Source: Escherichia coli
Lineage (GTDB): Bacteria > Pseudomonadota > Gammaproteobacteria > Enterobacterales > Enterobacteriaceae
Assembly: GCF_024223415.1 (NCBI RefSeq)
Contig: NZ_CP100500.1
DNA length: 64,000 bases
Strand: one strand, 5' to 3'
Of the stretch, positions 22,237 through 34,679 are shown in pieces. A program made the translations under genes and the position numbers. Position 1 is the stretch's first letter. Each line of letters begins with the position of its first letter. Below the pieces are notes generated by a model. That model was not told the origin of the DNA. It made no database searches and saw only the letters and a program-made list of their open reading frames with translations.

Positions 22237-22249
22237 ATAAATGGGATAT
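22237..22249. repeat. attL core: left copy of the 13-bp direct repeat ATAAATGGGATAT (includes the native allE ATG)
   Basis: Matches ATAAAAGGGATAT at 33890-33902 in 12 of 13 positions; the allE start codon plus 2 codons are followed by foreign sequence. Confidence 0.6.
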
Positions 22250-22322
22250 ATCTATAACTTATTTTCAATAAGGTATTGATTTAATTAAACAACTTACACT
22301 ACAAAAAGTGCCAAAAATCGCA

Positions 22323-22347
22323 AATTAACTACACCATTAACTACACC
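22323..22347. repeat. Tandem AATTAACTACACC / ATTAACTACACC repeats, left arm (candidate integrase arm-type sites)
   Basis: The same 25-bp tandem is present at 33743-33767 next to int; flanking ~60 bp is also similar at both ends. Confidence 0.5.
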
Positions 22348-22639
22348 GTTCGGCGCACTGTATGAAACAACGTGGAACAAATAGGCACAAGAAATATAAA
22401 GGCGGGTAATTTTAAGGGGGCGTTGCTGTCGATACGGGGATCCACATATCGAGATTGATACCTGGCTTTTTTTCCGGTTAACCTTTAATCAGGCTGGTGG
22501 GCTTTACCTGTTCTGTAGGAGTGGTCATTATGACCATTCAGCCAATGACCTTAATCAGAATTTTTCGCTAAAAAATGACGTTGGCCACGTCATCCGGAAA
22601 GCACAAAATCACGTCGATTTTTAATGGATGGTTAAACCG

Positions 22640-23000
22640 TCTTTTTGTCACGGTGTGTCACTGGTTGTCACGCTCTGTCACGATGTCCGGCCTCCTCACA
22701 TTGAGGATTGTGGAAGAATCAATGGGTTAGTCTTACTACCCAAACTACGGGTAGTTTCCGTAGTTTCATGGTCGAGTTGCAGATCTGCAACTCCCCCATC
22801 AACCACAGGCGAATTTCCGCCTTCGGTCATTCCTTAATCATCTGCGTAATCATAATGATTATTCAGCCACCTCAATTTTGAGGTTTGCTTTAAGTTCAGC
22901 GAGTTACCGCGCCGACTTCCTCAAATTGAGGTTTCCGAAAATATCAGTGGGTTAGCGATTAAGCTGACCATTAATTAAACTGCGAAAATTTCGTAGTTTG
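22640..23000. promoter_or_regulatory. Repeat-dense non-coding region; candidate packaging (cos-like) or TerS-binding region
   Basis: Four TGTCAC copies at exact 10-bp spacing (22646-22681); 20-bp perfect palindrome GAGTTGCAGATCTGCAACTC (22774-22793); three CCTCA-N3/4-TGAGG inverted repeats; no convincing ORF. Confidence 0.35.
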
Positions 23001-23087
23001 TGACTGTCTTTCAGGCAGCTTGTTATCAGTCCTCAGATGTGAGGGATGTAGCCAGCGCAATTTTGCGTTATCGGGAATATCAGCAAG

Positions 23088-23369
23088 TTACCGCCGTAAC
23101 CGTTCCGGCTTCTTCCACTGATAAGTGTTTTTCGCGCTCTCCTGATACATCGCCACGCGTCGACGGTATGCCAGCAACTCTAGTACTCTGATTCGTATGT
23201 CGCGCATATCCACGCCGTTAAGCTCAATACCATCACGGCGCATTACATCAGCAACAACACGCACGTAATTTTCGGCGATCACGCTGTCCGGCTGCGTGGC
23301 CTGTTCGTCATGCTGCTGGCTGATTCCGGTAACGCGGCGGATTAATCCCAGTAGTTCGGCTTCTGTCAT
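23088..23369 (-). CDS. Hypothetical protein (island, distal to head module)
   Basis: 93-aa ORF; no recognisable domain; coding status uncertain. Confidence 0.3.
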   Translation of the reverse strand: MTEAELLGLIRRVTGISQQHDEQATQPDSVIAENYVRVVADVMRRDGIELNGVDMRDIRIRVLELLAYRRRVAMYQESAKNTYQWKKPERLRR

Positions 23370-23423
23370 TGTGCCCCCATCGCTCTGATAGTCTGGTGTC
23401 GTCGGGTCCTTCTGGAATTATGG

Positions 23424-23468
23424 CCCGTTACGGGGCGTCGACCTCGCGGTTTTTCGCTATTTATGAGC
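23424..23468. repeat. Inverted repeat, left copy (flanks the Nu1-like gene cassette)
   Basis: Its reverse complement matches 24169-24212 in about 42 of 44 positions, including a perfect 25-bp core CGCGAGGTCGACGCCCCGTAACGGG. Confidence 0.7.
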
Positions 23469-23661
23469 TTTTTTAGAGGGAGGTTGTTGTTTAATTGTTT
23501 GTCATATCCATTTGATAACTAAGTAAAAATAAAGAGCAATACAACAACCTGATAGTGTTTTTTTGATGCTAAAAATAAAAAAATACTAATTGAATCAAAT
23601 AGTTTTAAAAAAATACGTGGTTGTTGTATTGCGTATTTGATGGCGTAACAGAAAGTGATTT

Positions 23662-24102
23662 TTAACTTTGCTGTTCTGTAACGACTGATTGTTCCATGCT
23701 GGCACGGCGAACGCTTACGGCATGACGCCACCCAGCCAGAAAGCCAGCCATTTTATTTCGTGCCTTGCTCACATCTTCCGGTGAATAGCCGTAAATATGC
23801 AAACCTTCATCAAATCGCTGTTCTGTTTCTTCACTGAAATACTCGTCGCGCTCTGACGCAATCAACCTGGCAACCATAATCTTTTCCAGTGCGCTGGTTT
23901 CTCCGTGGTACTCAATAGCATCAAGATGGCTTTTACCCATGCACCAGAATAATGTGTGTCCGATGTGATAACCGCCGGACTTTCCGCGATCCGCATCAAG
24001 ATATGGCATGCCCTGTTTGGTCCATGCGCGAATAGTGGTTCTGTTGACCTTGAAATGTTCTGCTATTTCCTGCTGACTCACAAAACAAGCTTTATCAATC
24101 AT
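23662..24102 (-). CDS. Terminase small subunit, lambda Nu1-like (HTH DNA-packaging protein)
   Basis: 146-aa ORF; N-terminus VSQQEIAEHFKVNRTTIRAWTKQGMPYLDADRGKSGG parallels lambda Nu1 (..IRTIQNWQEQGMPVLRGGGKG..). Confidence 0.7.
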   Translation of the reverse strand: MIDKACFVSQQEIAEHFKVNRTTIRAWTKQGMPYLDADRGKSGGYHIGHTLFWCMGKSHLDAIEYHGETSALEKIMVARLIASERDEYFSEETEQRFDEGLHIYGYSPEDVSKARNKMAGFLAGWRHAVSVRRASMEQSVVTEQQS

Positions 24103-24168
24103 AATGTTACCTTAATCATGCGATTAAATGTTAATCAAGTGGTGGTGGTGTCACCTTCACGGAAAAAC

Positions 24169-24212
24169 GTCATAAATAGCGAAAACGCGCGAGGTCGACG
24201 CCCCGTAACGGG
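24169..24212. repeat. Inverted repeat, right copy (flanks the Nu1-like gene cassette)
   Basis: Partner of 23424-23468 in inverted orientation; the two enclose ~700 bp containing only the Nu1-like gene and an AT-rich tract. Confidence 0.7.
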
Positions 24213-24233
24213 TCCACATGCCGGAAAGGACCC

Positions 24234-24258
24234 GCAAAAAAAGCCGGATTTCTCCGGC
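24234..24258 (-). terminator. Rho-independent terminator after orf137
   Basis: Minus-strand hairpin GCCGGAGAAATCCGGC followed by a T-run; nearly the same terminator recurs at 26509-26532. Confidence 0.5.
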
Positions 24259-24264
24259 CTTGTC

Positions 24265-24678
24265 TCAGATGGTTTTCAGTATGCGATCGATGTCGCCGTC
24301 ATCGCCCTGGTTTGTGCCATCGTATGCCATGCCAGCTGATACGGCTTTCGGGCTGTGCATGTCCATAAAGTTTTCAAAGGCTGAAGTAAGCTCTGGTGCA
24401 ACCTTCGGGCGTTCCTGCTCTATGGTCATGCTAAGGATGCTTTTAGCCGTACCAACATCGATACAAGGCACGTTAGCCATTGCACGTAACAGCGGCTGGT
24501 AGTCGTCAGATTCATGAAGCGCCATAATCGCATCAGCGCGCGGCTTGTCCTGTTCTTCCAGTTTGTTGAGTCGGTGTATGGCCTCGTAGGTTGATAAACC
24601 TCTGTCAGCCATTGCCCGCGCTTCGGCTTTAAATTTACTCGCCAGCGGTAGCTTCATGATACTTTCATTCGTTGCCAT
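24265..24678 (-). CDS. Hypothetical head-module protein (137 aa)
   Basis: ORF directly downstream of the D-like gene in the same operon; acidic C-terminus; no recognisable domain. Confidence 0.5.
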   Translation of the reverse strand: MATNESIMKLPLASKFKAEARAMADRGLSTYEAIHRLNKLEEQDKPRADAIMALHESDDYQPLLRAMANVPCIDVGTAKSILSMTIEQERPKVAPELTSAFENFMDMHSPKAVSAGMAYDGTNQGDDGDIDRILKTI

Positions 24679-24690
24679 CGTTCCCCCTGC

Positions 24691-25026
24691 TTATCGTGCC
24701 AGCGGCTGAACGGATACGCCGGAACCCGCAAAGGCGGCGCATTTTTTCGCATCGGTGTCGACGCTATCAGGCCAGTTAACGGCGGCAATATTGAATATCC
24801 CCGTTTTGTAACACTGTGCTGATTTCTGCTTTGACGTGTCCACGGGGTGCGAAGTCAGATAAACAGCTTTGCCAGATTCCTGACCATCCCACGCCTTAAA
24901 CTCGCCATTGTCTGCCAGCATCAGCGGGGTAAATTCCTGAATAACGCCAGCATCAGCGGCAAAATGTACCAGCGTCGTGGATACCTGCTGGCTGCCTGAA
25001 AATAACTCAATGTATGGAGCGTCCAT
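24691..25026 (-). CDS. Head decoration protein, lambda gpD-like
   Basis: 111-aa ORF with gpD-like motifs (TPLMLAD..AWDG..KTGIF..WP..AAFAGSG) and lambda D size. Confidence 0.75.
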   Translation of the reverse strand: MDAPYIELFSGSQQVSTTLVHFAADAGVIQEFTPLMLADNGEFKAWDGQESGKAVYLTSHPVDTSKQKSAQCYKTGIFNIAAVNWPDSVDTDAKKCAAFAGSGVSVQPLAR

Positions 25027-25037
25027 AGAATCCCCCG

Positions 25038-26093
25038 TTAAGCAATTTTGACGGTAACAAATTTGCGAATATCTGCCGGTACCGGCTGCGGTGCGCTGTG
25101 CGTCTGCACGTACTCAATCGCCGGATCGCCGTCCTCAATCCAGTTTTTCGGGTAGTACATGTTTTGCGTTGCGCCCGTTCTTACCGCTTCCTGATCCATA
25201 ATCGCACCATATGCCACCAGCCCTTTATTGTTGGTGTTACCCAGGACCAGCAAATCAGGCTCAAGGAAATATTTTTCGGTGCCGTCGCTGTCAGTGTATT
25301 TGCCGGAATAGACGATAAGGGCCAGATCACCAAGATAGCCTTTAAAGCTCACCACTTCGCCCAGGTTTTTACAGGCCAGCTCGGCGGCGGATTCTGACCC
25401 ACGGGAAAGATCGTACAGTTCACGGAATTTTTTAAAGCTGCGTAATGTGCGCCATACCTCACCGCCCATAATCATGACGTTGGCGGGGCAACCTGCCTGA
25501 TCAGCATAAAGCTCGATGTCATAGATTGGGTCGTGCATGTCTTTATCCTGCTGGGACCATTTTTTACCACTGGCCTGCTGTATGATGCAGTTTTCCGGTA
25601 TTTTCCAGTCGATTTCATAGCGTTCTATGCCTTCGCCCTCAATGATGTTTTTTCCGGTCGTTACCGCATTCACCGCCAGCCATTCAACACGCGCTTTAAT
25701 GGCGTTTACCTGGCGGCGCATGTTGCCAGTAATCAGGCGCATACGGCGATAGGTTGGGTCGTTAAGCTGTGCCGGATCTTCTCCAGCCATGCGCATGATG
25801 GTCTTTGTTGGATCGATTTCGTGCTTTGGCTTCATGTAGCCTGGTTTAATCGTGCTGGTTTCGTACCCTTTATCGCGCTGGACCTGACTACCCACCATAG
25901 GAGAACAGAACGCAGACATCGTAACCTCTTCAATGTCCAGGGTGTCCAGCATGATGTTTTGGGTGTTGAAGGTCGCCACGTTCGGGAAAAACAGCGTGGT
26001 AAACAGCGGACTAAATTTAAATTCCGAAATATCCCCGCGATTCAGGTACGCGAAAAGCTGGTTAGTTGTAAGTGCCGTTGCTTTGCCTGTCAT
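25038..26093 (-). CDS. Major capsid protein, lambda gpE family
   Basis: 351-aa ORF with many lambda gpE identities (PGYMKPKHE, DPTYRRMRLI, VVSFKGYLGDLALIVYSGKY, VLGNT, YPKNW..GDPA, SAP). Confidence 0.85.
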   Translation of the reverse strand: MTGKATALTTNQLFAYLNRGDISEFKFSPLFTTLFFPNVATFNTQNIMLDTLDIEEVTMSAFCSPMVGSQVQRDKGYETSTIKPGYMKPKHEIDPTKTIMRMAGEDPAQLNDPTYRRMRLITGNMRRQVNAIKARVEWLAVNAVTTGKNIIEGEGIERYEIDWKIPENCIIQQASGKKWSQQDKDMHDPIYDIELYADQAGCPANVMIMGGEVWRTLRSFKKFRELYDLSRGSESAAELACKNLGEVVSFKGYLGDLALIVYSGKYTDSDGTEKYFLEPDLLVLGNTNNKGLVAYGAIMDQEAVRTGATQNMYYPKNWIEDGDPAIEYVQTHSAPQPVPADIRKFVTVKIA

Positions 26094-26299
26094 TATTCAC
26101 CTCCGTGAACCTGATTGATACCCAGCGCCGCACGTAAATAGGTGCGCACCTGCCAGCCTGTTGACGGCTCAACCATCGCCAGCGGATCAAGTCCTGCCGC
26201 AATGCCTGCTTTTACATTCTGCTGGTGGCGTTCCTTGAGCGCCTCCACGATGTCGGGGCTTATGTAGACCGTCACCCCGCCTTTTTTCTCTTCTGCCAT
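26093..26299 (-). CDS. Hypothetical protein translationally coupled to the capsid gene (68 aa)
   Basis: ORF whose stop overlaps the capsid gene start; no recognisable domain. Confidence 0.45.
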   Translation of the reverse strand: MAEEKKGGVTVYISPDIVEALKERHQQNVKAGIAAGLDPLAMVEPSTGWQVRTYLRAALGINQVHGGE

Positions 26300-26508
26300 A
26301 GTCAGAAATTCCTCTTTGACTTAAAAAATCATAACTGGATGTTCATCCAGTCCTGATTATAATCATGATTGCATTTTGTGCAATAATGTTGAGTTGTGTT
26401 GCAAATTATGAAATGATTATCCCGATCATGTGTGTCAGTGCACCATAAAAAACCTCGTATACAAAAGCCCGATAAGCCCCCTGTGACCTTATCGGGCTTT
26501 TTTTAGGC

Positions 26509-26532
26509 GTAAAAAAGCCGGATTGCTCCGGC
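26509..26532 (-). terminator. Rho-independent terminator after the PerC-like gene
   Basis: Minus-strand hairpin GCCGGAGCAATCCGGC followed by a T-run. Confidence 0.5.
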
Positions 26533-26539
26533 TGTGTGC

Positions 26540-26812
26540 TCACTTCTGCGGGTAGTTGCGCCATATTGCTTTGCCAATACCAGCTATCCCCATTTGTTTT
26601 TCAGTGCGATTAACTGACCTTTTCAGAGCGCCTAAATCATCCGGCGGCTCCGGTGGCCTCTGTGCCTTCCGTGAACATTCCAGCCGTCGCATTGCCACCT
26701 GTGCGCGTTCCTTGTCTGTCTCCACCAGCATCATCACTTCACCCCATCGCGCGGCCGCCCTCCGGTAAAATCCTTTCGCCTCCAGTTCCTCCGCTATCCG
26801 GTCATGTACCAT
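26540..26812 (-). CDS. PerC-family transcriptional regulator-like protein
   Basis: ORF 26540..26932; likely start MVHDRIAEELEAKGFYRRAAARWGEVMMLV, resembling PerC-family proteins; assignment from memory of the family. Confidence 0.5.
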   Translation of the reverse strand: MVHDRIAEELEAKGFYRRAAARWGEVMMLVETDKERAQVAMRRLECSRKAQRPPEPPDDLGALKRSVNRTEKQMGIAGIGKAIWRNYPQK

Positions 26813-26822
26813 CGTCACCCCC

Positions 26823-27233
26823 TCAGAACGGAATATCATCACCGTAAGGGTCATCGCCTCCCGCTGGTGGCTGATTACCCTGTGTGCCTGTGGTTTTGCG
26901 TCTGTTCCCGCCAGGACGTGCCGCACGGGCACTGATTACGCTGTCTGCGATGACCTGCCAGCCCTGCCGCGTTTCGCCGTTCTGGCCTGTCCACTGGCTT
27001 ACCTGCATGTTACCCGCCACGCTCACCAGTTCGCCTTTGTGGTGTCTGGCCAGTGCGTCGGCCTGTCTGCCAAACGCCAGGACGGATAACCACATCGTCG
27101 CCGTTCCGTCATCTGCCTGGCTGCATGGCAGGGGAACCGCCATACTCGCCATCGCCATTTGTGTCCCTTTGCTGGTCTGTTTTGTCTGCGGGTCGTCCAC
27201 CAGCCGCCCGTAAGCCGCTATCTGTGCTGTCAT
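26823..27233 (-). CDS. Single-stranded DNA-binding protein (SSB)
   Basis: 136-aa ORF with OB-fold-like N-terminus, Gly/Pro-rich linker and the canonical acidic SSB tail ...GDDIPF. Confidence 0.8.
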   Translation of the reverse strand: MTAQIAAYGRLVDDPQTKQTSKGTQMAMASMAVPLPCSQADDGTATMWLSVLAFGRQADALARHHKGELVSVAGNMQVSQWTGQNGETRQGWQVIADSVISARAARPGGNRRKTTGTQGNQPPAGGDDPYGDDIPF

Positions 27234-27487
27234 GCTGTCTGCTCTCCGGTTTTAACATTGATGGTTGTCACCTGTTCCGCTCCGGCAATCTCCCGCTCTG
27301 TCAGCGTGGCAAAGTTTGCCGCCGTCGTTGTCATGAATGCGCTTATCAGTTCGGGATGTGCTTTCGCGTATCCTTCCCCCGTGTTGCGGTCGATGATTTT
27401 TATCGCCACCCTCAGCCAGTGCTCTGTAAGGTCAATGGCGCGGTTATGTGATTTCTTCTGATTGTTAAATTTTTCTGATGTGTGCAT
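27230..27487 (-). CDS. Hypothetical protein (85 aa) upstream of ssb
   Basis: ORF overlapping the ssb start by 4 nt; no recognisable domain. Confidence 0.45.
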   Translation of the reverse strand: MHTSEKFNNQKKSHNRAIDLTEHWLRVAIKIIDRNTGEGYAKAHPELISAFMTTTAANFATLTEREIAGAEQVTTINVKTGEQTA

Positions 27488-27529
27488 TTTTATTTTTACC
27501 CCCTCGTTTAAAAAGTTTTGAGTTGTGGT

Positions 27530-27770
27530 GCACCTCCTCTACCTCTCTACACAATCATCTTTCAGGTCAGTAATGGCGCGGCTTTCAGCGGGGTAGAGGG
27601 CTTTTTTGGCCCTCTACCCGCCATCTACCACCCCCTCACAAATGCCCTGAATTATGGTAGAGGGTGTAGAGGGCTTTTAAGTACCTTCTACCTGCCATCC
27701 ACCCAATCTATCCACATGAAATATATGTAATTATTTTCTTAAGGTAGAAGGGGTAGAGGGCTTTTGTCTA
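27530..27770. repeat. Iteron array; candidate replication origin of the island
   Basis: At least six copies or variants of GGTAGAGGG(C)TTTT and its complement CCCTCTACC in about 240 bp of non-coding DNA directly 3' of the primase gene. Confidence 0.6.
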
Positions 27771-27773
27771 AAA

Positions 27774-29522
27774 CTATAAAAACGCGTCGCAGTCGTCTGT
27801 TGTTGTCACGTTGGTTTGCGTAAACCCTTTAATCCTGCGCGTTATATATTCATGACCGTAAACTTTCGCCGCTGGCTTCATGGCCTTGCTGAACTCAGCC
27901 ACGTTCAGCGGTTTGCTCCTGCCTGCATACGCCATAAACGCCAGATAGACGCGGTAAAGGCTGTTTCTGGTCGTGTACTTCACTGAATCGCCACCGCCGC
28001 CCATCATCAGGCCACGTGCTTCCTCCAGAAAATTCAGGAACTGGCAAAACTCAATAACCGGATCCGTCTGTTGCTTTATTGCCAGAGCTTCATCACCGTC
28101 TCGCTGTTCAATGAGTAAAGCCCGTGCCTTTTCAGGGTCGGCAAAGTTCGCCAGCAAGCGGCGGATAATGACAGGGATTTCAGCCGCGATCTTTTCCGGT
28201 AGCTCCCTGTCTTTTTCTGCCTCGCTTACGATGTTATCGAACCGGAATATCACCCGACGACGTGACACGCCTCCTGCCCGTTCGGTGAATATCATCGGGT
28301 TATTATTGGTTGCCAGCACAACCGCCCTGATTACCGCCGTGAATCGCTTTTCATATTTCGGGTTGATTTCCACGGGGTCGCCGCCCGTGATTTTCTTGAT
28401 GCCCGTTCCTTCGCCTGTATATTTCGGCTGGTCTGCCAGGACAATAAGCCTACTCCCGACAACCTGCGCACGCCCACCAGCATCATCAAGCGATGTCATC
28501 TCAGCGCTTACCGTGTTCTGTTTCCCTGCCAGAAGGCTGGCTATGTGTGTGAATGTACTTTTACCGCTCCCGCCGTCTCCGGTGGCCTCAATAAACATCT
28601 GCCAGTCGTACCGGTTCGCCATAATCATGTACAGCGCGGCACATATACGCATCATCTTGCGCGGGTCTTTTCCGGCAGCGTGATCAAGCCATTTATGAAA
28701 GTTTGGCGCGTTGTCGCGGATATTCTCACCTGGTACTGGCGGCGTGTACTCAATGCCGTTGTGTGTGGTGATCCAGTTCTCCGGCGTGTGCGGGGAAAAT
28801 TCCCCCGTTTTCAGGTCAAGCGCACCATTGGCGAACGGCAGCAAATCGCCGGACGGCTCGCCCATTGGTTCGGCAATAACTTTTAACGCTTCCACGGCGT
28901 TACTGATTACGCGCTTGCTGAAAGTGGCCCTGTGCTCTGAATAGATCGCCACCATTTCGCGGCTCAGTTCCATTGTGCTGACCGGACACCATACCCCGCC
29001 GCGCCATACGTGAACGATTTCACTTTCCAGATGCACACAAACGCCATCAAATCGACCAGCAAGCATCTGTGCGCGCTCACTGTCTGCCATTTGTGCCAGT
29101 TGCGTATTTTTCTGCTCCGGCATGGTAAGCCCTGCGGCAATATTTTCACGCTCAGCATTCAGATAGCGCCGCCAGTTTTCACACTTCTGACCGTGCATTC
29201 CTTCAGAGTAAAAATTCGCATCCTGAATATCTGCCGCCGCCAGCTTCTGACCAATCTTTTTGGTCTCCACTAAATCCAGTTCTCCGGCCTGGTACAGCCT
29301 TACGCGTTTTTTTCCATCCGGAACAATTTTCAGCGCATCAAGTTCAGCAAGCTGATTTGGCCCAAGCCACACAGGCGGCACATTATCGCCGGATGCGGGA
29401 CCGTCCTTCTCCTGCCACTGTTGTGCATGCGACCAGGCATCACTACCCGCAAAGATAATTACCTCTGTGTCTTTGTGTTTTATTCCGCGTGGCTGTTTTT
29501 TTACGTTCGGTGCCAGTTTCAT
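27774..29522 (-). CDS. Phage/plasmid primase-helicase (P4 alpha family; D5_N plus P-loop NTPase)
   Basis: 582-aa ORF; Walker A GDGGSGKST; architecture and size typical of satellite or PICI Pri-Rep proteins. Confidence 0.85.
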   Translation of the reverse strand: MKLAPNVKKQPRGIKHKDTEVIIFAGSDAWSHAQQWQEKDGPASGDNVPPVWLGPNQLAELDALKIVPDGKKRVRLYQAGELDLVETKKIGQKLAAADIQDANFYSEGMHGQKCENWRRYLNAERENIAAGLTMPEQKNTQLAQMADSERAQMLAGRFDGVCVHLESEIVHVWRGGVWCPVSTMELSREMVAIYSEHRATFSKRVISNAVEALKVIAEPMGEPSGDLLPFANGALDLKTGEFSPHTPENWITTHNGIEYTPPVPGENIRDNAPNFHKWLDHAAGKDPRKMMRICAALYMIMANRYDWQMFIEATGDGGSGKSTFTHIASLLAGKQNTVSAEMTSLDDAGGRAQVVGSRLIVLADQPKYTGEGTGIKKITGGDPVEINPKYEKRFTAVIRAVVLATNNNPMIFTERAGGVSRRRVIFRFDNIVSEAEKDRELPEKIAAEIPVIIRRLLANFADPEKARALLIEQRDGDEALAIKQQTDPVIEFCQFLNFLEEARGLMMGGGGDSVKYTTRNSLYRVYLAFMAYAGRSKPLNVAEFSKAMKPAAKVYGHEYITRRIKGFTQTNVTTTDDCDAFL

Positions 29523-29818
29523 TTTTTACCCCTGAATACGTTAAGCATCTTTTTTATTTCCTGAATATTGGCGCGTGCTTTCTCCCTGCTGGTTGGTTTA
29601 CTGCGGGGCGCTGCCTGTACCAGAGAAAAATCACGCCGGAACTGATAAACAGGCATCACGCAATCATATTCGTAGCCTTCACGGCGGTAAGTGATGCGCC
29701 GTTCCTCCACGCCTTTAATCGTTACCGTGCCGCCGTACTGGTCGCGGTAAATATCGCCGTTCATAAATTCAGGCCGAGCGGGGCCGCTGGCATTAACGCC
29801 AGTATTTTTCATTCCCAT
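29519..29818 (-). CDS. Hypothetical protein (99 aa), translationally coupled to primase
   Basis: Stop overlaps the primase start by 4 nt; basic protein of unknown function. Confidence 0.5.
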   Translation of the reverse strand: MGMKNTGVNASGPARPEFMNGDIYRDQYGGTVTIKGVEERRITYRREGYEYDCVMPVYQFRRDFSLVQAAPRSKPTSREKARANIQEIKKMLNVFRGKK

Positions 29819-29822
29819 ATAA

Positions 29823-30065
29823 TTAAATTCCGTTTGTGTGGTGTTTTAATTCGTCAATTTTTTCTAATGCTTTGTTTATCTTGCTGGTGGAAATATCCAG
29901 CAATTCAGAAATAGCAAATATAAGTCTTGCCGTTGATTCATCTCTTTCGTTGTTTGACAGCAATTGAAACCACACGTTTGTAATTTCAATTGCCGAATTA
30001 TTATAGGTTATTGCACTGTTCATGTATTCCGACACCTCTGCAAGCGAAAGTTTATTATTCTCCAT
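29823..30065 (-). CDS. Hypothetical protein (80 aa), AT-rich accessory gene
   Basis: Locally AT-rich ORF within the minus-strand operon. Confidence 0.4.
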   Translation of the reverse strand: MENNKLSLAEVSEYMNSAITYNNSAIEITNVWFQLLSNNERDESTARLIFAISELLDISTSKINKALEKIDELKHHTNGI

Positions 30066-30246
30066 AACGTTCTACCCTCTCATCAATTAACCACAGTGCA
30101 ACACTTCCTGACAGTCTTGCCAGAAGGCCAGCTAATGCGGATATATCATCATCATTTAATTTATTAGGGTACGCTTCAAGAAGTCTGCAAATAATTTCGG
30201 TTTGGTGGGCGCGTTCAGCGGCTTCGTGTAATGTAATTTCCTTCAT
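30055..30246 (-). CDS. Hypothetical protein (63 aa)
   Basis: ORF overlapping its neighbours by a few nt (operon). Confidence 0.4.
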   Translation of the reverse strand: MKEITLHEAAERAHQTEIICRLLEAYPNKLNDDDISALAGLLARLSGSVALWLIDERVERYGE

Positions 30247-30431
30247 TAATGCACCTCTTTTAATTCATACACTGCTGAAATAATGACTTGTGATAAGCCA
30301 TATTCTGATGATTCGCTTCTCACCGCAGCAATAGCCGTCTGAACATTAACAGCCTTCACATTCTGAGCGATACCAATTGTGTGGCCTAGTGGGTTAACAG
30401 CTCGGGCAAATACACGGAAGGTTTTAAGCAT
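30246..30431 (-). CDS. Hypothetical protein (61 aa)
   Basis: ORF overlapping its neighbours (operon). Confidence 0.4.
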   Translation of the reverse strand: MLKTFRVFARAVNPLGHTIGIAQNVKAVNVQTAIAAVRSESSEYGLSQVIISAVYELKEVH

Positions 30432-30789
30432 GGCGCACCCCCTGAATAACCTGATATCCGCAACTGGTCAGCAATTCGATAAATTCCGGCAGAGTGCCAA
30501 AACAGCAATCAGTGCGTAGCTGTTCGCAGGATACCTCAACGCCGTTTTCGTAATGGCTCACTATGCGCCCGGTAAAATGCGGATCATCATCGTGATGGCA
30601 CGTTGACGGTTTCATCAGCCGCGCGCGTTCCGCCAGTTCCAGCAATGCTTCAACGCTTCCGGCAATTGCACCATCCGGCAGGTGATAATTACTTACTACG
30701 CGTCCATTCTCTACATTGACCAGTAGCTGTCCGGTAAATTTCTCACGAAACTGAACGCGGTTAAGATCGGTAAGTGACAGGTTAATCAT
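30424..30789 (-). CDS. Hypothetical Cys/His-containing protein (about 122 aa)
   Basis: ORF track 30424..30831; ATG at 30789 overlaps the upstream gene stop (ATGATTAA); contains CHHDDDPH...C..CC, a possible metal site. Confidence 0.45.
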   Translation of the reverse strand: MINLSLTDLNRVQFREKFTGQLLVNVENGRVVSNYHLPDGAIAGSVEALLELAERARLMKPSTCHHDDDPHFTGRIVSHYENGVEVSCEQLRTDCCFGTLPEFIELLTSCGYQVIQGVRHA

Positions 30790-30979
30790 GGCACACCTCC
30801 TGACGAATACGGGCGGCGAATACAGCGACACAACCGGACGGGCAACGGTTACGCGCTTCGCGTTCTGTCCAGGCGGTCACGTGGATAATTTGAGATTCTC
30901 CGGCACTCAGTGCCAGAAAACGCCACACAAAGGCGGTTTGTGTGTGCGCAAGGCGTGGGGTATGCTGTGTTCCAGCCAT
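30782..30979 (-). CDS. Small protein resembling P4 Icd-like / Ash-family (host cell-division inhibitor-like)
   Basis: 65-aa ORF MAGTQHTPRLAHTQTAFVWRFLALSAGESQIIHVTAWTEREARNRC...; SD GAGGT 7 nt upstream; first gene of the leftward operon; family assignment tentative. Confidence 0.4.
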   Translation of the reverse strand: MAGTQHTPRLAHTQTAFVWRFLALSAGESQIIHVTAWTEREARNRCPSGCVAVFAARIRQEVCHD

Positions 30980-31069
30980 AATCGTTACCTCAATTAATGG
31001 TTTGGTTAGAAGCCCGTTGGTGTTCATAGCGCCAGCGGGCTTTGTCTTTTCATCGATTACCTCAATAAA

Positions 31070-31151
31070 GGTGTCAGCCACTATACTAGTAACAGGTGTC
31101 AGCCACGTCAATAGTGTTTTTCCATTTTCTTGTGTGTATACTGTCAGCCAC
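31070..31151. promoter_or_regulatory. Three direct repeats of (G)GTGTCAGCCAC in the divergent promoter region (candidate operators)
   Basis: Copies at about 31070-31081, 31095-31106 and 31141-31151, between the leftward icd-like operon and the rightward RHH gene; a TATACT -10-like hexamer abuts copy 3. Confidence 0.5.
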
Positions 31152-31172
31152 CTAATAACAAGGAAATCAGAT

Positions 31173-31352
31173 ATGGCAACGAAAGCAGTTAATGGAAAAT
31201 CCAAAAAACTTGAGGCACGAGTCCCCCATGCAATAGCTGACGCTTTAGAAAATTTAAAGGAAGAAGGCGAAAGCACTGGGCAATTTATCGTTTCGGCACT
31301 TGAAGGCGAGATCAAACGCCGCCAGCGCCGGAAGGCCAAAGAATCAGAATAA
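31173..31352 (+). CDS. Small RHH/Arc-like DNA-binding protein; candidate island repressor
   Basis: 59-aa ORF MATKAVNGKSKKLEARVPHAIADALENLKEEGESTGQFIVSALEGEIKRRQ...; SD AAGGA; transcribed divergently from the replication operon. Confidence 0.55.
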   Translation: MATKAVNGKSKKLEARVPHAIADALENLKEEGESTGQFIVSALEGEIKRRQRRKAKESE

Positions 31353-31400
31353 TCACTATCAGCGCCGTGGTGTGAGGTACTGCGGCGCATTGTTTTAAAG

Positions 31401-31601
31401 GTGATAATTATGAATAACCAAGAACTACAAAATAAAGCATTATCAATTATCATGCGCCAGCGTGAGAAAACCCGCAGGGAAATAAATAAGGCATTAACCC
31501 GCACTGAAAATCTTAAAGTTCCTGATAAGTTCGCCCTTGATCCTTTTGTCGAGAAATACCCTCGGCGCTTAAAAGCAAACAAAAACCGCCCACCTGGCTG
31601 A
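31401..31601 (+). CDS. Hypothetical protein (66 aa) downstream of the RHH gene
   Basis: Short ORF on the same strand as the RHH gene, before a plus-strand terminator. Confidence 0.3.
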   Translation: MIIMNNQELQNKALSIIMRQREKTRREINKALTRTENLKVPDKFALDPFVEKYPRRLKANKNRPPG

Positions 31602-31758
31602 CAATCCACCAGCAAGCCAGGACACTGATCACATTGGCCACCGTGACAGGTGGCCTTTTCTTTGCCCGTTATCCGGCAATTGTGGCGCTTCGCCACACGG
31701 TTGATATAATCCCACTGCTCATATTCATTTTTTGCGCAGTAGGTTAATTGTTCAGAAA

Positions 31759-31787
31759 GGCGGCTCCTTATCGGGGCCGCTTTTTTT
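31759..31787 (+). terminator. Rho-independent terminator ending the rightward RHH transcription unit
   Basis: Hairpin GGCGGCTCC-TTATC-GGGGCCGC followed by TTTTTTT. Confidence 0.45.
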
Positions 31788-31928
31788 ATGTCTGAAAAAC
31801 CGCGATTTTGTTGTTTTTCAGTTTCACAAGGCCGAACGAAGCCCCGCCCCTGTTCGGGCGTATATCCAGTCTTCATGGTTAAATCTCTGTATTAGTGGAT
31901 GGGTGGCGGCTGTGTGCCGCCAGTCTTT

Positions 31929-32117
31929 TTAGTGAACTGCCTCGCAGCTTTCCTTCCATGCCAGAACTTCGGATAAAGACCAGCCAACGGAACGACCGCC
32001 CAGCTTACGCCGTGATGGGAATTGTCCGGCCTTTTCCAGGCGGTAGCGGCATGAGCGGCTAAGCCCTGTTAGCTTTTCGCATTCTTTTTCACGTATAAAC
32101 CGATCAGTGCTTAACAC
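31929..32117 (-). CDS. alpA: AlpA-family phage regulatory protein (excisionase/activator-like)
   Basis: 62-aa ORF ...KLTGLSRSCRYRLEKAGQFPSRRKLGGRSVGWSLSEVLAWKES, the AlpA HTH signature; adjacent to int. Confidence 0.8.
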   Translation of the reverse strand: MLSTDRFIREKECEKLTGLSRSCRYRLEKAGQFPSRRKLGGRSVGWSLSEVLAWKESCEAVH

Positions 32118-32409
32118 TATTGCCCCCTTTCGTTTCTTAAAGAGTTATTTCGTGTTCTATTGCGTTGGTATGTGTCTGATTGTGTCAGGGTGATTCAGAG
32201 TTGGCAAATGTTGGTGGCGGGTATTTTACAGAAACGGGGTTATTTTAATAAAAAACATTTTAATTCAGTATTATGCAAAGGCATAAAATCTCGTTTTATG
32301 CCTTTTTTCTCACTATTTAAAGCGTTATTCGCTAATGTATAAAAAACCAGTTGAGCATTAAAAATCAGCAACTTATAAATCTGTATACTTTTTGGCCTCT
32401 TGTTCGTGG

Positions 32410-32443
32410 TTGTTTCACGTTGTTGCGTATTGTTTCACGTTGT
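32410..32443. repeat. Two direct repeats TTGTTTCACGTTGT between int and alpA
   Basis: Identical 14-mers at about 32410-32423 and 32430-32443 in the int-alpA intergenic region. Confidence 0.4.
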
Positions 32444-32491
32444 ATCTGTGCACTTATCCAGTATGCGCATACTGAAAAAACACGAAAAAAA

Positions 32492-33742
32492 TTATTTTCT
32501 TCTGGTTACTGGTAGCGTGGTTACGTTTTCATGTGCTCCCGCCAGTATCTCCAACCGCTCCACCCACATATCCAGCGCATTGCGTTTCGCATCCAGATAA
32601 CGGGAATGATTATAAACTCGCTGCATTCCTGGCATCTGGTGGCCTGTAAGCTGCTCCACGACGTGAGGATCCACGCCTAAATCGTTCAGCATCGTTGTAA
32701 AGGTGCGCCGGATGTCATGCAGTGACCAGTGAGGGTGTTTAAGCCTCCTGTGCGCTAATCTTCCATACTGCGATACGCTGGCCTCCTGTTTCACTTCCCC
32801 CAGCAATAAGCCCGTGTGCCTGTTCTGCTCCACCAGCTGCGTGACGAACGGCAGTATCGCTTCCGGTATGGGCCGGAATATGGCTACCTTCGTTTTGCTG
32901 TGCTCCTTCGGAACGGTCCATAGCATTTCGGTAAAATCCCACTCCCCGATCTCCGATAGCCTCAGTTCTACTGTCCTGGCTCCGAAGACAATCAGGAGGC
33001 GGATTAGTGCGACGTAGTAAGGGGAAAATATTTTTTTGTCCAGTGCCTGCAATAATTCGCCAAGTTCTTTGTTACTTAAGACACGCTGACTTATATCCGG
33101 TTTTTTCCCAACGTCAGCAACACTCATATCATCAAGAACGTTGCTGATTGCATAGCGCCGCTTCCGGCAGAACTTAAGCGCCTGTTTGCATGTCTGTAGC
33201 AGGAATCCGGCGGAAACAGGGGCTTGCTTTGCCACCCGATCAAAACAGGCCAGCCAGTGCCGTAGCTCGCATTTATCCAGCGGCATAGCACCAATCTGCT
33301 GTATTACGTGATTATTAAGTCGCCTTTTCAGGGCGATATAATCCACGCGGTTTTCCTTTACGTAATACTCAAGCCAGTAGGTAAGCGCATCGCCAACCGT
33401 TACAGGCTTTAACGCTTCCTGTACGGTGTAATTCATCTCATGACGTGGATTTTTCCCCTCAGCCAGCCATGCGCGGCACTGTGCGGCTTTTTCCCTGGCT
33501 GCTTTCAGGCTCAGATCAGGATAATTTCCCAGCTTAATCCGTTCCGGTCGTGCTCCCCTTCCCGTTCCGGCCCTGTAGGTGAAATACCAGGTTAAAAGGC
33601 CGCTGGTTGAATGCCTGACGGTCAGGTTTCCACCGTCATTAAGAAAGACTGTTTTTTGGGCGGGTGTGCCGTTGATTTTCCTTAGCTGTGTATCGCTCAG
33701 TTTGTTAAGTGCTCTGCGCATAATTTTGATTCCGGTCATCAC
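32492..33742 (-). CDS. int: Tyrosine recombinase/integrase (P4-like, DUF4102 N-terminus)
   Basis: 416-aa ORF; N-terminus ...LNDGGNLTVRHSTSG...WYFTYR; C-terminal catalytic region HDIRRTFTT...VYNHSRY; lies at the island edge next to attR. Confidence 0.9.
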   Translation of the reverse strand: MMTGIKIMRRALNKLSDTQLRKINGTPAQKTVFLNDGGNLTVRHSTSGLLTWYFTYRAGTGRGARPERIKLGNYPDLSLKAAREKAAQCRAWLAEGKNPRHEMNYTVQEALKPVTVGDALTYWLEYYVKENRVDYIALKRRLNNHVIQQIGAMPLDKCELRHWLACFDRVAKQAPVSAGFLLQTCKQALKFCRKRRYAISNVLDDMSVADVGKKPDISQRVLSNKELGELLQALDKKIFSPYYVALIRLLIVFGARTVELRLSEIGEWDFTEMLWTVPKEHSKTKVAIFRPIPEAILPFVTQLVEQNRHTGLLLGEVKQEASVSQYGRLAHRRLKHPHWSLHDIRRTFTTMLNDLGVDPHVVEQLTGHQMPGMQRVYNHSRYLDAKRNALDMWVERLEILAGAHENVTTLPVTRRK

Positions 33743-33767
33743 AATTAACTACACCATTAACTACACC
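33743..33767. repeat. Tandem AATTAACTACACC / ATTAACTACACC repeats, right arm (candidate arm-type sites)
   Basis: Identical to 22323-22347; located immediately upstream of the int start. Confidence 0.5.
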
Positions 33768-33889
33768 GATCGTTGCACAAAGGGCTACAACGTGAAACAA
33801 GCTGGAACAAGAAAAATCACAAATTTGTTTATAATCAAAAACATAATGCACAACCTGAAACATTATGAAACGGCAAAAAACACTAATTG

Positions 33890-33902
33890 ATAAAAGGGAT
33901 AT
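33890..33902. repeat. attR core: right copy of the 13-bp direct repeat (ATAAAAGGGATAT)
   Basis: 12 of 13 match to attL; a TAA stop and AAG replace the native ATG start of allE. Confidence 0.6.
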
Positions 33903-34679
33903 TTAAATAACGTCACCGGTTACCGCGATGATTTACTGGCTAACCGTGCGATTGTGAAACACGGTAATTTCGCACTGTTAACACCAGACGGTCTGGTAAA
34001 AAATATTATTCCGGGCTTTGAAAATTGTGACGCGACAATCCTCTCCACGCCAAAGCTGGGTGCCTCTTTTGTTGATTATCTGGTCACACTGCATCAAAAC
34101 GGTGGCAACCAACAGGGCTTCGGTGGCGAAGGCATTGAAACGTTCCTGTATGTGATCTCTGGAAATATCACTGCCAAAGCCGAAGGCAAAACATTTGCCT
34201 TAAGCGAAGGTGGCTATCTTTATTGCCCGCCAGGCTCCTTAATGACGTTTGTTAACGCCCAGGCCGAAGACAGCCAAATCTTTTTATATAAGCGCCGCTA
34301 TGTTCCGGTAGAAGGCCATGCACCGTGGCTGGTTTCTGGCAATGCCAGCGAACTGGAACGCATTCACTATGAAGGTATGGATGATGTGATCCTGCTGGAT
34401 TTTCTGCCCAAAGAGTTAGGTTTTGATATGAACATGCATATCCTCTCTTTTGCACCAGGTGCCAGCCATGGTTATATCGAAACACACGTTCAGGAACACG
34501 GTGCCTATATTCTTTCCGGTCAGGGGGTTTATAACCTCGACAATAACTGGATCCCGGTGAAAAAAGGCGATTACATCTTTATGGGCGCTTATTCTTTACA
34601 GGCTGGTTATGGCGTAGGGCGTGGTGAAGCGTTCAGCTATATTTACTCGAAAGATTGCAACCGCGACGTAGAGATTTAA
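33897..34679 (+). pseudogene. allE: Ureidoglycine aminohydrolase gene truncated at its start codon by island insertion
   Basis: Reading frame GYLNNVTGYRDDLLANRAIVKHGNFALL... resumes at 33897 with no ATG; an in-frame TAA lies 2 codons upstream; first in-frame start is GTG at 33954. Confidence 0.8.

Follow-up and report, generated by a model that had tools for sequence, protein, structure and literature searches.

The attachment site of phage lambda, attP, carries the arm-type sites P1, P2 and P′1 to P′3 around a core, C-O-C′, with a 7-bp overlap, together with sites for integration host factor (IHF) and Xis. Phage-inducible chromosomal islands (PICIs) of Gram-negative bacteria have the gene order int-alpA-primase-late genes (PMC6092414; PMC10111431), and alpA is required for PICI excision (PMC11773190; preprint on capsid-forming PICIs [cf-PICIs], 10.1101/2022.09.08.507074). 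The attP sites of helper-embedded PICIs (HE-PICIs) contain a doubled motif, tgTGTATTGCantgTGTATTGCa (tgTGTATTGCa twice), in two co-oriented copies, one 81±2 bp upstream of the centre and the other 132±2 bp downstream, and the motif was reported to be absent from other PICIs and unique to HE-PICIs (Tommasini, Mageeney & Williams 2023, NAR Genom Bioinform, PMC10111431). In the integration modules of KplE1 (CPS-53) and P4, the integrase and its recombination directionality factor (RDF) repress int, and for KplE1 autoregulation via arm sites overlapping the int promoter has been shown experimentally (Panis et al. 2010, PMC2951348). This investigation examined a 64,000-nucleotide stretch of the Escherichia coli contig NZ_CP100500.1 (“the window”), in which a PICI-type phage satellite of 11.6 kb is inserted at allE and carries, close to each of its ends, one copy of a 75-nt repeat module.

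Sequence comparisons make it likely, although not certain, that these two copies are the P and P′ arms of the attP of the satellite and that its integrase (Int) is heterobivalent. The modules would most likely provide arm-type sites for Int and probable sites for the small regulator AlpA. Both copies start with AATTAACTACACCATTAACTACACCG, a 26-nt sequence that is identical and in direct orientation at 22323-22348 and 33743-33768 and consists of two tandem 12-mers, ATTAACTACACC (Tandem Repeats Finder), or GGTGTAGTTAAT, the reverse complement, on the int-sense strand. Exact ATTAACTACACC occurs only four times in the window, twice at each repeat site. Ungapped extension aligned 22323-22397 with 33743-33817 (75 nt, 79% identity; repeat family D1), and the 49 nt 3′ of the 26-mer have 33 matching positions (P of ∼7e-10 at a fixed register). 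Beyond this, similarity falls to the chance level, with 11 matches over the 43 positions of 22398-22440 and 33818-33860. The initial annotation of a repeat with a similar flank at both sites therefore holds for the identity of the 26 nt and their direct orientation, but its spans, to 22440 and 33860, were ∼40 nt too long. Next to each doubled 12-mer is an array of three phased 10-mers ending in AACAA, and a third cluster of such 10-mers lies 48 nt beyond the int stop codon, upstream of alpA.

The island is flanked by allD and allC on the left and by allE and glxK on the right; allC and allE are adjacent in ∼5,400 complete E. coli genomes. Its ends were located by comparing the empty site of strain BL21 with the occupied sites of the window and of AR_0085. 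The empty site (attB) reads ...GGAGTCATAAATGGGATATTTAAATAACGTC, in which ATG is the allE start codon (the junction context is also written ...GTCATAAATGGGATATTTAAATAACGTC and ...ATAAATGGGATATTTAAATAAC), and contains neither copy of the repeat. In the window, the left junction reads ...GTCATAAATGGGATAT (shorter form, ...ATAAATGGGATAT) followed by ATCTATAAC..., and the right junction reads ...TTGATAAAAGGGATAT followed by TTAAATAACGTC...; the junctions in AR_0085 are the same. As the heptamer GGGATAT is the only sequence common to attL, attR and attB, both 75-nt copies are island DNA. The repeats had been placed inside each att core and at the island ends, and neither placement withstood this comparison: the core is the 7-bp overlap at the allE start codon, with the repeats 78 and 132 bp away, and the left copy starts 74 nt, and the right 26-mer ends 127 nt, inside the junctions. 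The 26-bp identity was also considered as the att core, in the sense of the direct repeat made by integration, and this was rejected, as the empty site has none of it.

The corrected boundaries place a 7-bp crossover at the start codon of allE, and integration strips the gene of this codon, since the triplet AAG replaces ATG at attR. At attL (22241-22279), the ribosome-binding site and ATG of allE now head a 12-codon stub that ends at a TGA (22277-22279). At attR (33865-33954), AAG precedes GGATAT, and the next in-frame start is a GTG at 33954, 20 codons in; a shortened allE is annotated by RefSeq in AR_0085. A 13-codon island open reading frame (ORF) spans the right junction, from an ATG at 33865 to a TAA at 33906. 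In strains with the island, allE has probably lost its function or is poorly expressed. The allE site is occupied in 12 of 5,426 complete E. coli genomes, and a literature search turned up no relevant report of allE (ylbA) as an attachment site for satellites.

A reconstructed attP of ∼310 bp was obtained by fusing the right end of the island to the left. On the plus strand, the int start and a 22-nt gap precede the first two 12-mers; after another 14 nt come three 10-mers and then ∼75 nt ending in TTGATAAAA. The overlap GGGATAT is next, followed by ATCTATAAC, ∼65 nt, a second pair of 12-mers, 14 nt and three more 10-mers. The junction expected for an excised island of the allE type is ...TTGATAAAAGGGATATATCTATAAC.... 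The doubled 12-mers are co-oriented; the int-side pair lies 132 bp, and the far-side pair 78 bp, from the centre of the overlap. The core half-sites, TTGATAAAA and, on the other strand, GTTATAGAT, form an imperfect inverted pair. Across lineages, the core is likewise flanked by TTGATAAAA and (A/T)TTTAT(A/C)AC, which are inverted relative to each other, and the consensus ATTTATAAC directly follows the overlap in all seven attPs of an alignment (A2).

Two circular relatives contain such an attP intact. One, found by a plasmid search, is the 10,790-bp circular “plasmid” NZ_CP148328.1 of E. coli Z1323HEC0475, an excised PICI with int, alpA, an Icd-like gene, a primase gene and a gene for a capsid fusion protein (locus L011). 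Its attP runs uninterrupted over the point where the record begins and is colinear with the one reconstructed for clpS/cspD, with 88% identity over 362 nt; its doubled 12-mers lie 132 and 77 bp from the overlap centre. The other, found by an Int protein search, is a tqsA-type element on IMG/VR contig 3300045988_152974 (IMGVR_UViG_3300045988_152974; L034), which is a circle of 10,979 bp, as indicated by a terminal direct overlap of 119 nt. Its attP, across the junction, is 89% identical over 268 nt to that reconstructed from the window, with the motifs at 132 and 78 bp. The repeats thus lie on either side of the crossover, both in the reconstruction and in the attPs of two actual circles, and are missing from attB. 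Absence of the repeats from an excised attP had been named as the result that would count against their being arm-type sites; both copies are present, in sister lineages, 209 to 210 bp apart. Circular relatives in public data are consistent with excision, and some small “nonmobilizable plasmids” in databases may be excised satellites. An excised phoQ-type attP junction had no match in IMG/VR, and no circular HE-PICI attP was found there. A search for pairs of doubled 12-mers 200 to 220 bp apart gave no exact match in IMG/VR or metagenome contigs; L034 escaped it because its 12-mer differs.

The attP of the window resembles that of HE-PICIs in having a tandem motif of 11 to 12 bp in two co-oriented copies, at 78 and 132 bp compared to 81 and 132 bp, with the 132-bp copy abutting the int start, and in having a PICI/P4-type integrase with alpA adjoining. 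The two differ in motif sequence, as tgTGTATTGCa and GGTGTAGTTAAT have only a GTGTA core in common, and in integrase, as the Int proteins of loci with the HE-PICI motif, which abuts the int start there also, are only ∼40% identical to that of the window. HE-PICIs target late genes of helper prophages, whereas the window island and its relatives target chromosomal genes (allE and others) and have, in addition, a phased 10-mer array beside each doubled motif. The island is therefore not a HE-PICI, since motif sequence, target and Int clade all differ. Conversely, because the module of the window has the same layout, it is only the motif sequence, and not the doubled-motif architecture, that is unique to HE-PICIs. 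The architecture is found even in lineages of the data set of PMC10111431 itself (clpS_cspD, smrA, rcnR_thiM and tqsA), and it is extended here to other PICI and cf-PICI lineages of E. coli, including the prototype cf-PICI of O157:H7.

In general terms, the attP of the window follows the classical lambda-type plan. It shares with the lambda attP intasome a heterobivalent Int, putative arm sites on both sides, inverted half-sites around a 7-bp overlap, a length of ∼300 bp and phased adjacent sites. It differs in that the Int arm domain is PF13356 rather than the lambda Int N-domain family and in the sequences, number and orientation of the putative sites, which in the window are two doubled sites, all co-oriented. 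As in KplE1 IntS/TorI and P4 Int/Vis, int is transcribed away from att, with a promoter that would overlap the arm and RDF sites (Panis et al. 2010, PMC2951348); those elements, however, integrate in tRNA genes and their sites were mapped experimentally, whereas regulation in the window is what we infer. With the E. coli PICIs and cf-PICIs EcCICFT073 and EcCIEDL933, the island shares the order int-alpA-...-primase-...-late genes, a size of 10 to 15 kb and a dedicated att site (Fillol-Salom 2018, PMC6092414; 10.1101/2022.09.08.507074). The phoQ/roxA island of O157:H7 has the same arm modules and an Int that is 93% identical in protein (∼94% in nucleotide sequence) to that of the window. Compared to this cf-PICI relative (L005), which has the full set, the window island lacks the complete HK97-type capsid, portal and terminase set and has only lambda-E-like, lambda-D-like and TerS-like genes.

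In Blast searches with the island and int, members of this integrase family turned up in 1,245 of 5,426 E. coli genomes, and the layout is common to islands at six sites: allC/allE, phoQ/roxA, smrA/abgR, clpS/cspD, thiM/rcnR and tqsA. In every relative, one module lies by the int start and another, co-oriented, near the far end, and in the reconstructed attP the block of identity between attL and attR lies between them. The gap between the doubled motifs is 209 to 210 bp in all lineages, and the spacing from crossover to motif is constant within 1 bp over the six. With the conserved block AACACTAAnTGAnAAA as anchor, the 7-bp overlaps fall into one register and read GGGATAT, TATGTCC, TCACGAT, AACTATC, TACGGGT and TGCTGTT; for clpS_cspD, smrA, rcnR_thiM and tqsA, matching identity blocks are listed in the supplement of PMC10111431. 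The 10-mers occur in both arms of all six lineages, and the third 10-mer cluster is conserved in L002 to L007 and in the lineages with type-1 AlpA (see below). A strict scan for phased RAACAR arrays proved too strict, and the arrays of the window itself escaped it.

Islands of the allE, phoQ/roxA and tqsA types, with Int proteins that are 91 to 93% identical, have different targets. Almost all the differences between their attPs are confined to the 7-bp overlap and to a stretch of ∼25 nt in the proximal P′ arm (A2 columns 150 to 195), and the C′ half-site of each attP is similar to the B′ half-site at the target of that island (ATAAC for allE and TCAC for phoQ/roxA).

Covariation among the lineages bears on which protein may read which motif. 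The 12-mer is ATTAACTACACC in the allE, phoQ, smrA and cspD lineages, AGTGACTACACC in tqsA and AACTGACCACAC in thiM/rcnR, and each variant is altered in the P and the P′ arm alike. The far-arm 12-mers of tqsA are not those of the window, yet the 40 nt before and 46 nt after them are almost identical, which indicates that the arms changed separately and not as one block. The tqsA Int is 91% identical overall to that of the window, but 20 of the 35 differences fall in residues 1 to 100, the arm-binding domain (Fisher P = 1.4e-5), and the tqsA AlpA is 95 to 97% identical to AlpAs of the allE and phoQ types. There are two types of AlpA, with a mutual identity of ∼52 to 55%: type 1 (allE, phoQ, smrA and tqsA) and type 2 (cspD and rcnR). 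Since each type is paired with two different 12-mers, the 12-mer tracks Int and not AlpA. The 10-mer flavour, on the other hand, follows AlpA, with G(A/G)AACAA accompanying type 1 and CGAACAA type 2. The pattern fits a division in which Int would read the 12-mers and AlpA the 10-mers. A literature search for AlpA binding sites found nothing relevant.

The integrase itself has the domains expected for such a role. PF13356 (Arm-DNA-bind_3) was matched at residues 15 to 102 of the 416-amino-acid ORF (E = 1.8e-18) and the catalytic domain PF00589 at E = 2e-16; PF22022 was also matched. The N-terminal Arm-DNA-bind_3 domain that accompanies the catalytic domain marks this Int as the heterobivalent, arm-site-using kind. 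The initial suggestion that the repeats are arm-type integrase-binding sites is thus supported comparatively by their position flanking the crossover, the arm domain, the fixed spacing, the covariation of 12-mer and domain and the presence of both copies in the circular attPs.

We propose the following mechanism. Four 12-bp half-sites, two per arm, would be held by the N-terminal arm-binding domains of an Int tetramer and the core half-sites by the C-terminal domains, with the arms folded back by DNA bending, possibly with IHF at approximately +29 in the P′ arm. After integration, attL would retain the P′ module and attR the P module. The three phased 10-mers beside each doubled 12-mer would most likely be bound by AlpA, as a Vis/Xis-like protein that steers excision and may act also at the third, inverted 10-mer cluster between int and alpA. 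Both modules would be needed for excision, together with a directionality factor, a role for which AlpA is a candidate. The int promoter is predicted to lie within the P arm, because the module comes within 22 nt of the int ATG and chromosomal DNA is reached 180 nt upstream. Occupancy of the P-arm sites would then repress int, i.e., autoregulation as in KplE1 IntS/TorI.

Table 1. Positions in the window of the island, its attachment-site elements and its repeat arrays, followed by the relatives at other attachment sites
Feature	Position or loci	Strand	Remarks
Island body	22250..33895		11,646 bp; 11,653 bp with one overlap copy
int, tyrosine integrase, 409 aa	32492..33721	-	Arm-binding, central and catalytic domains
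alpA, 62 aa, AlpA/Vis-family helix-turn-helix protein	31929..32117	-	PF05930, E = 5e-18
attL overlap GGGATAT, left junction	22243..22249	+	Spans G of allE ATG and codons 2-3; same register in other lineages
C′ core-type half-site ATCTATAAC	22250..22258	+	Imperfect inverted copy of C half-site TTGATAAAA
Candidate IHF site, AATCAATACCTTA = WATCARNNNNTTR	22269..22281	-	P′ arm, ∼29 bp from overlap centre; consensus pattern scan
Far-side (P′ arm) doubled 12-mer, ATTAACTACACC twice	22324..22347	+	Starts 78 bp from overlap centre
Far-side array, three phased 10-mers ATGAAACAAC GTGGAACAAA TAGGCACAAG	22362..22391	+	
Third 10-mer cluster, ∼4 copies, two exact ACAACGTGAAACAA	32398..32444	-	Inverted compared to arm copies
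Int-side (P arm) doubled 12-mer, ATTAACTACACC twice	33744..33767	+	Ends 132 bp from overlap centre; 22 nt upstream of int ATG
Int-side array, three phased 10-mers GGGCTACAAC GTGAAACAAG CTGGAACAAG	33782..33811	+	
C core-type half-site TTGATAAAA	33887..33895	+	Within block AACACTAAnTGAnAAA, kept next to overlap in all lineages
attR overlap GGGATAT, right junction	33896..33902	+	Preceding triplet AAG, not ATG
Relatives at phoQ/roxA, including O157:H7 island with full capsid/portal/terminase set	L003-L006		int nucleotide identity to window, ∼94%
Relative at smrA/abgR	L007		int nucleotide identity to window, 83%
Relative at clpS/cspD	L008		int nucleotide identity to window, 78%
Relatives at thiM/rcnR	L009, L010		int nucleotide identity to window, 69%
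Relatives at tqsA	H83-H100		

Several observations weigh against this interpretation. The IHF-like match is confined to three of the six lineages, in which it has the same position (allE, phoQ and tqsA), and does not occur in smrA, cspD or rcnR. No excised attP of the allE type itself was found in IMG/VR, metagenome contigs or phage records. A scan upstream of int detected no sigma-70 consensus promoter, which makes autoregulation a conjecture and the least secure step of the mechanism. The clpS/cspD and thiM/rcnR lineages have no third 10-mer cluster near int, and the assignment of motifs to proteins draws on few independent lineages, among which the 12-mer has three variants and AlpA two types. 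The constant spacing could partly reflect shared ancestry, as the attPs are homologous; nevertheless, its retention in the thiM/rcnR lineage and in HE-PICIs, with an Int identity of ∼40%, argues for constraint.

Among the alternatives, the one with most in its favor, although we consider it unlikely, is a different distribution of the proteins, in which the doubled 12-mers are real arm elements of attP but are bound by AlpA or another protein, and the 10-mers are arm sites for Int or something else. The authors of PMC10111431 leave the binder of the HE-PICI motif open, with Int arm domains, AlpA and other proteins as candidates. Arrays of adjacent sites with a 10-bp phase recall P′1 to P′3 of lambda, and 10-mers are present in both arms in all six lineages. 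Yet type-1 AlpA occurs with ATTAAC- and AGTGAC-type 12-mers and type-2 AlpA with ATTAAC- and AACTGACC-type 12-mers, and changes in the 12-mer coincide with changes concentrated in Int amino acids 1 to 100. Moreover, 10-mer clusters are also located outside attP, upstream of alpA and at the capsid operon of L005, and the 10-mers consequently suit a transcription factor better than an integrase. A role of the modules outside recombination, as a pac or cos site, a replication origin or solely an int operator, with proximity to the crossover incidental, appears improbable. In the circle, the modules do lie between int and the TerS-like end, and the int-side copy must overlap the int 5′ region. However, their spacing to the crossover is fixed within 1 bp even though the cores and proximal P′ segments of the lineages are unrelated, HE-PICIs have the same 81/132 layout, and separate iterons beside the primase gene are the likelier origin. 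A role as operator is compatible with arm sites and not exclusive of them.

The two remaining alternatives are close to negligible. One is that the 26-bp identity is the att core, with the island ending there. No direct repeat around the island is longer, and the right copy abuts int, but the transitions from flank to island occur at GGGATAT, the empty site has no 26-mer, and the same 12-mers are found in islands at other sites with unrelated cores. Tandem satellites and their remnants occur at att sites in general. The left copy had been suggested to be what is left of a second element, integrated in tandem and since decayed. This suggestion must be abandoned for practical purposes, as no copy is present in the empty site, both copies, 209 to 210 bp apart, are carried by two excised circular elements, and both are present in every integrated relative at the six sites. 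In addition, the gap between allC and the left copy is just 73 nt, is colinear with the P′ arm of the circles and has no extra flank or gene remnant.

A broader generalization of the two-arm interpretation is that the 75-nt module is a portable two-protein arm cassette (12-mers for Int and 10-mers for AlpA) whose two copies evolve in concert at fixed helical distances throughout the integrase superfamily of PICIs, cf-PICIs and HE-PICIs. This is offered tentatively, and we regard it as less likely than not. If true, new targets would arise by exchange of little beyond the 7-bp overlap and ∼25 bp of the proximal P′ arm, and retargeting would take place with Int still ∼91 to 93% identical (allE, phoQ/roxA and tqsA types). 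AlpA, the master regulator induced by the helper phage, would double as the excision directionality factor via the 10-mers, and induction of the satellite would be coupled directly to excision. The natural series, in which six att specificities go with three variants of the 12-mer and two types of AlpA, gives ready predictions on arm reading and retargeting. Beyond this series, the corrected boundaries and the wider range of the doubled-motif architecture, the module is an ordinary component of site-specific recombination.

The island products, all encoded on the minus strand, are Int, AlpA, an Icd-like protein, a D5/DUF5906 primase-helicase, SSB, PerC, a lambda-E-like major capsid protein, a lambda-D-like decoration protein and a TerS-like protein, and the orthologous island of AR_0085 has the same annotation. 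The int start was set at the ATG at 33721 by homology with annotated orthologues. AlpA is a candidate RDF and regulator. Judged by its ORFs, by Pfam and PHROG matches and by the annotation of orthologous islands, the island has the traits of Gram-negative PICIs, namely, int-alpA, a primase/replication module, a dedicated att site, a length of 10 to 15 kb and an absence of genes for tails and lysis. In place of the complete set that defines cf-PICIs (HK97-type capsid, protease, portal, head-tail connectors, TerS and TerL), it has only capsid, decoration and TerS-like genes.

In the O157:H7 island at phoQ/roxA, an extra 10-mer cluster, GTGAACAAC GTGGAACAAC CACGAACAAA, is located upstream of the capsid/packaging operon (L005, 9176-9201) and suggests that the protein binding the 10-mers may also regulate late genes. 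In the window island, copies of GGTAGAGGG and its complement CCCTCTACC occur in both orientations at 27585-27770, just 3′ of the primase/D5-like ORF (27774-29522, minus strand), and these iterons sit where the replication origin of PICIs usually lies. An Rfam scan of the island gave nothing credible, with manA as the sole match (19.7 bits compared to a gathering score of 55.2). Four copies of TGTCAC with a period of ∼10 bp (consensus, TGTCACGGTG) lie at 22646-22686, ∼300 nt into the island from its left end, and might be a site for packaging or regulation. Three imperfect 32-nt direct repeats, TTGAGGTTTGCTTTAAGTTCAGCGAGTTACCG, with 66 to 72% identity (22878-23093), lie upstream of a 93-amino-acid ORF (23088-23369). 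A 64-nt inverted repeat (23410-23473 and 24163-24226; 84% complementary, 689 nt apart) brackets the small-terminase-like ORF at 23662-24102. The only tRNA gene in the window, for tRNA-Arg (anticodon TCT; 1537-1613, minus strand), is unrelated to the att site of the island.

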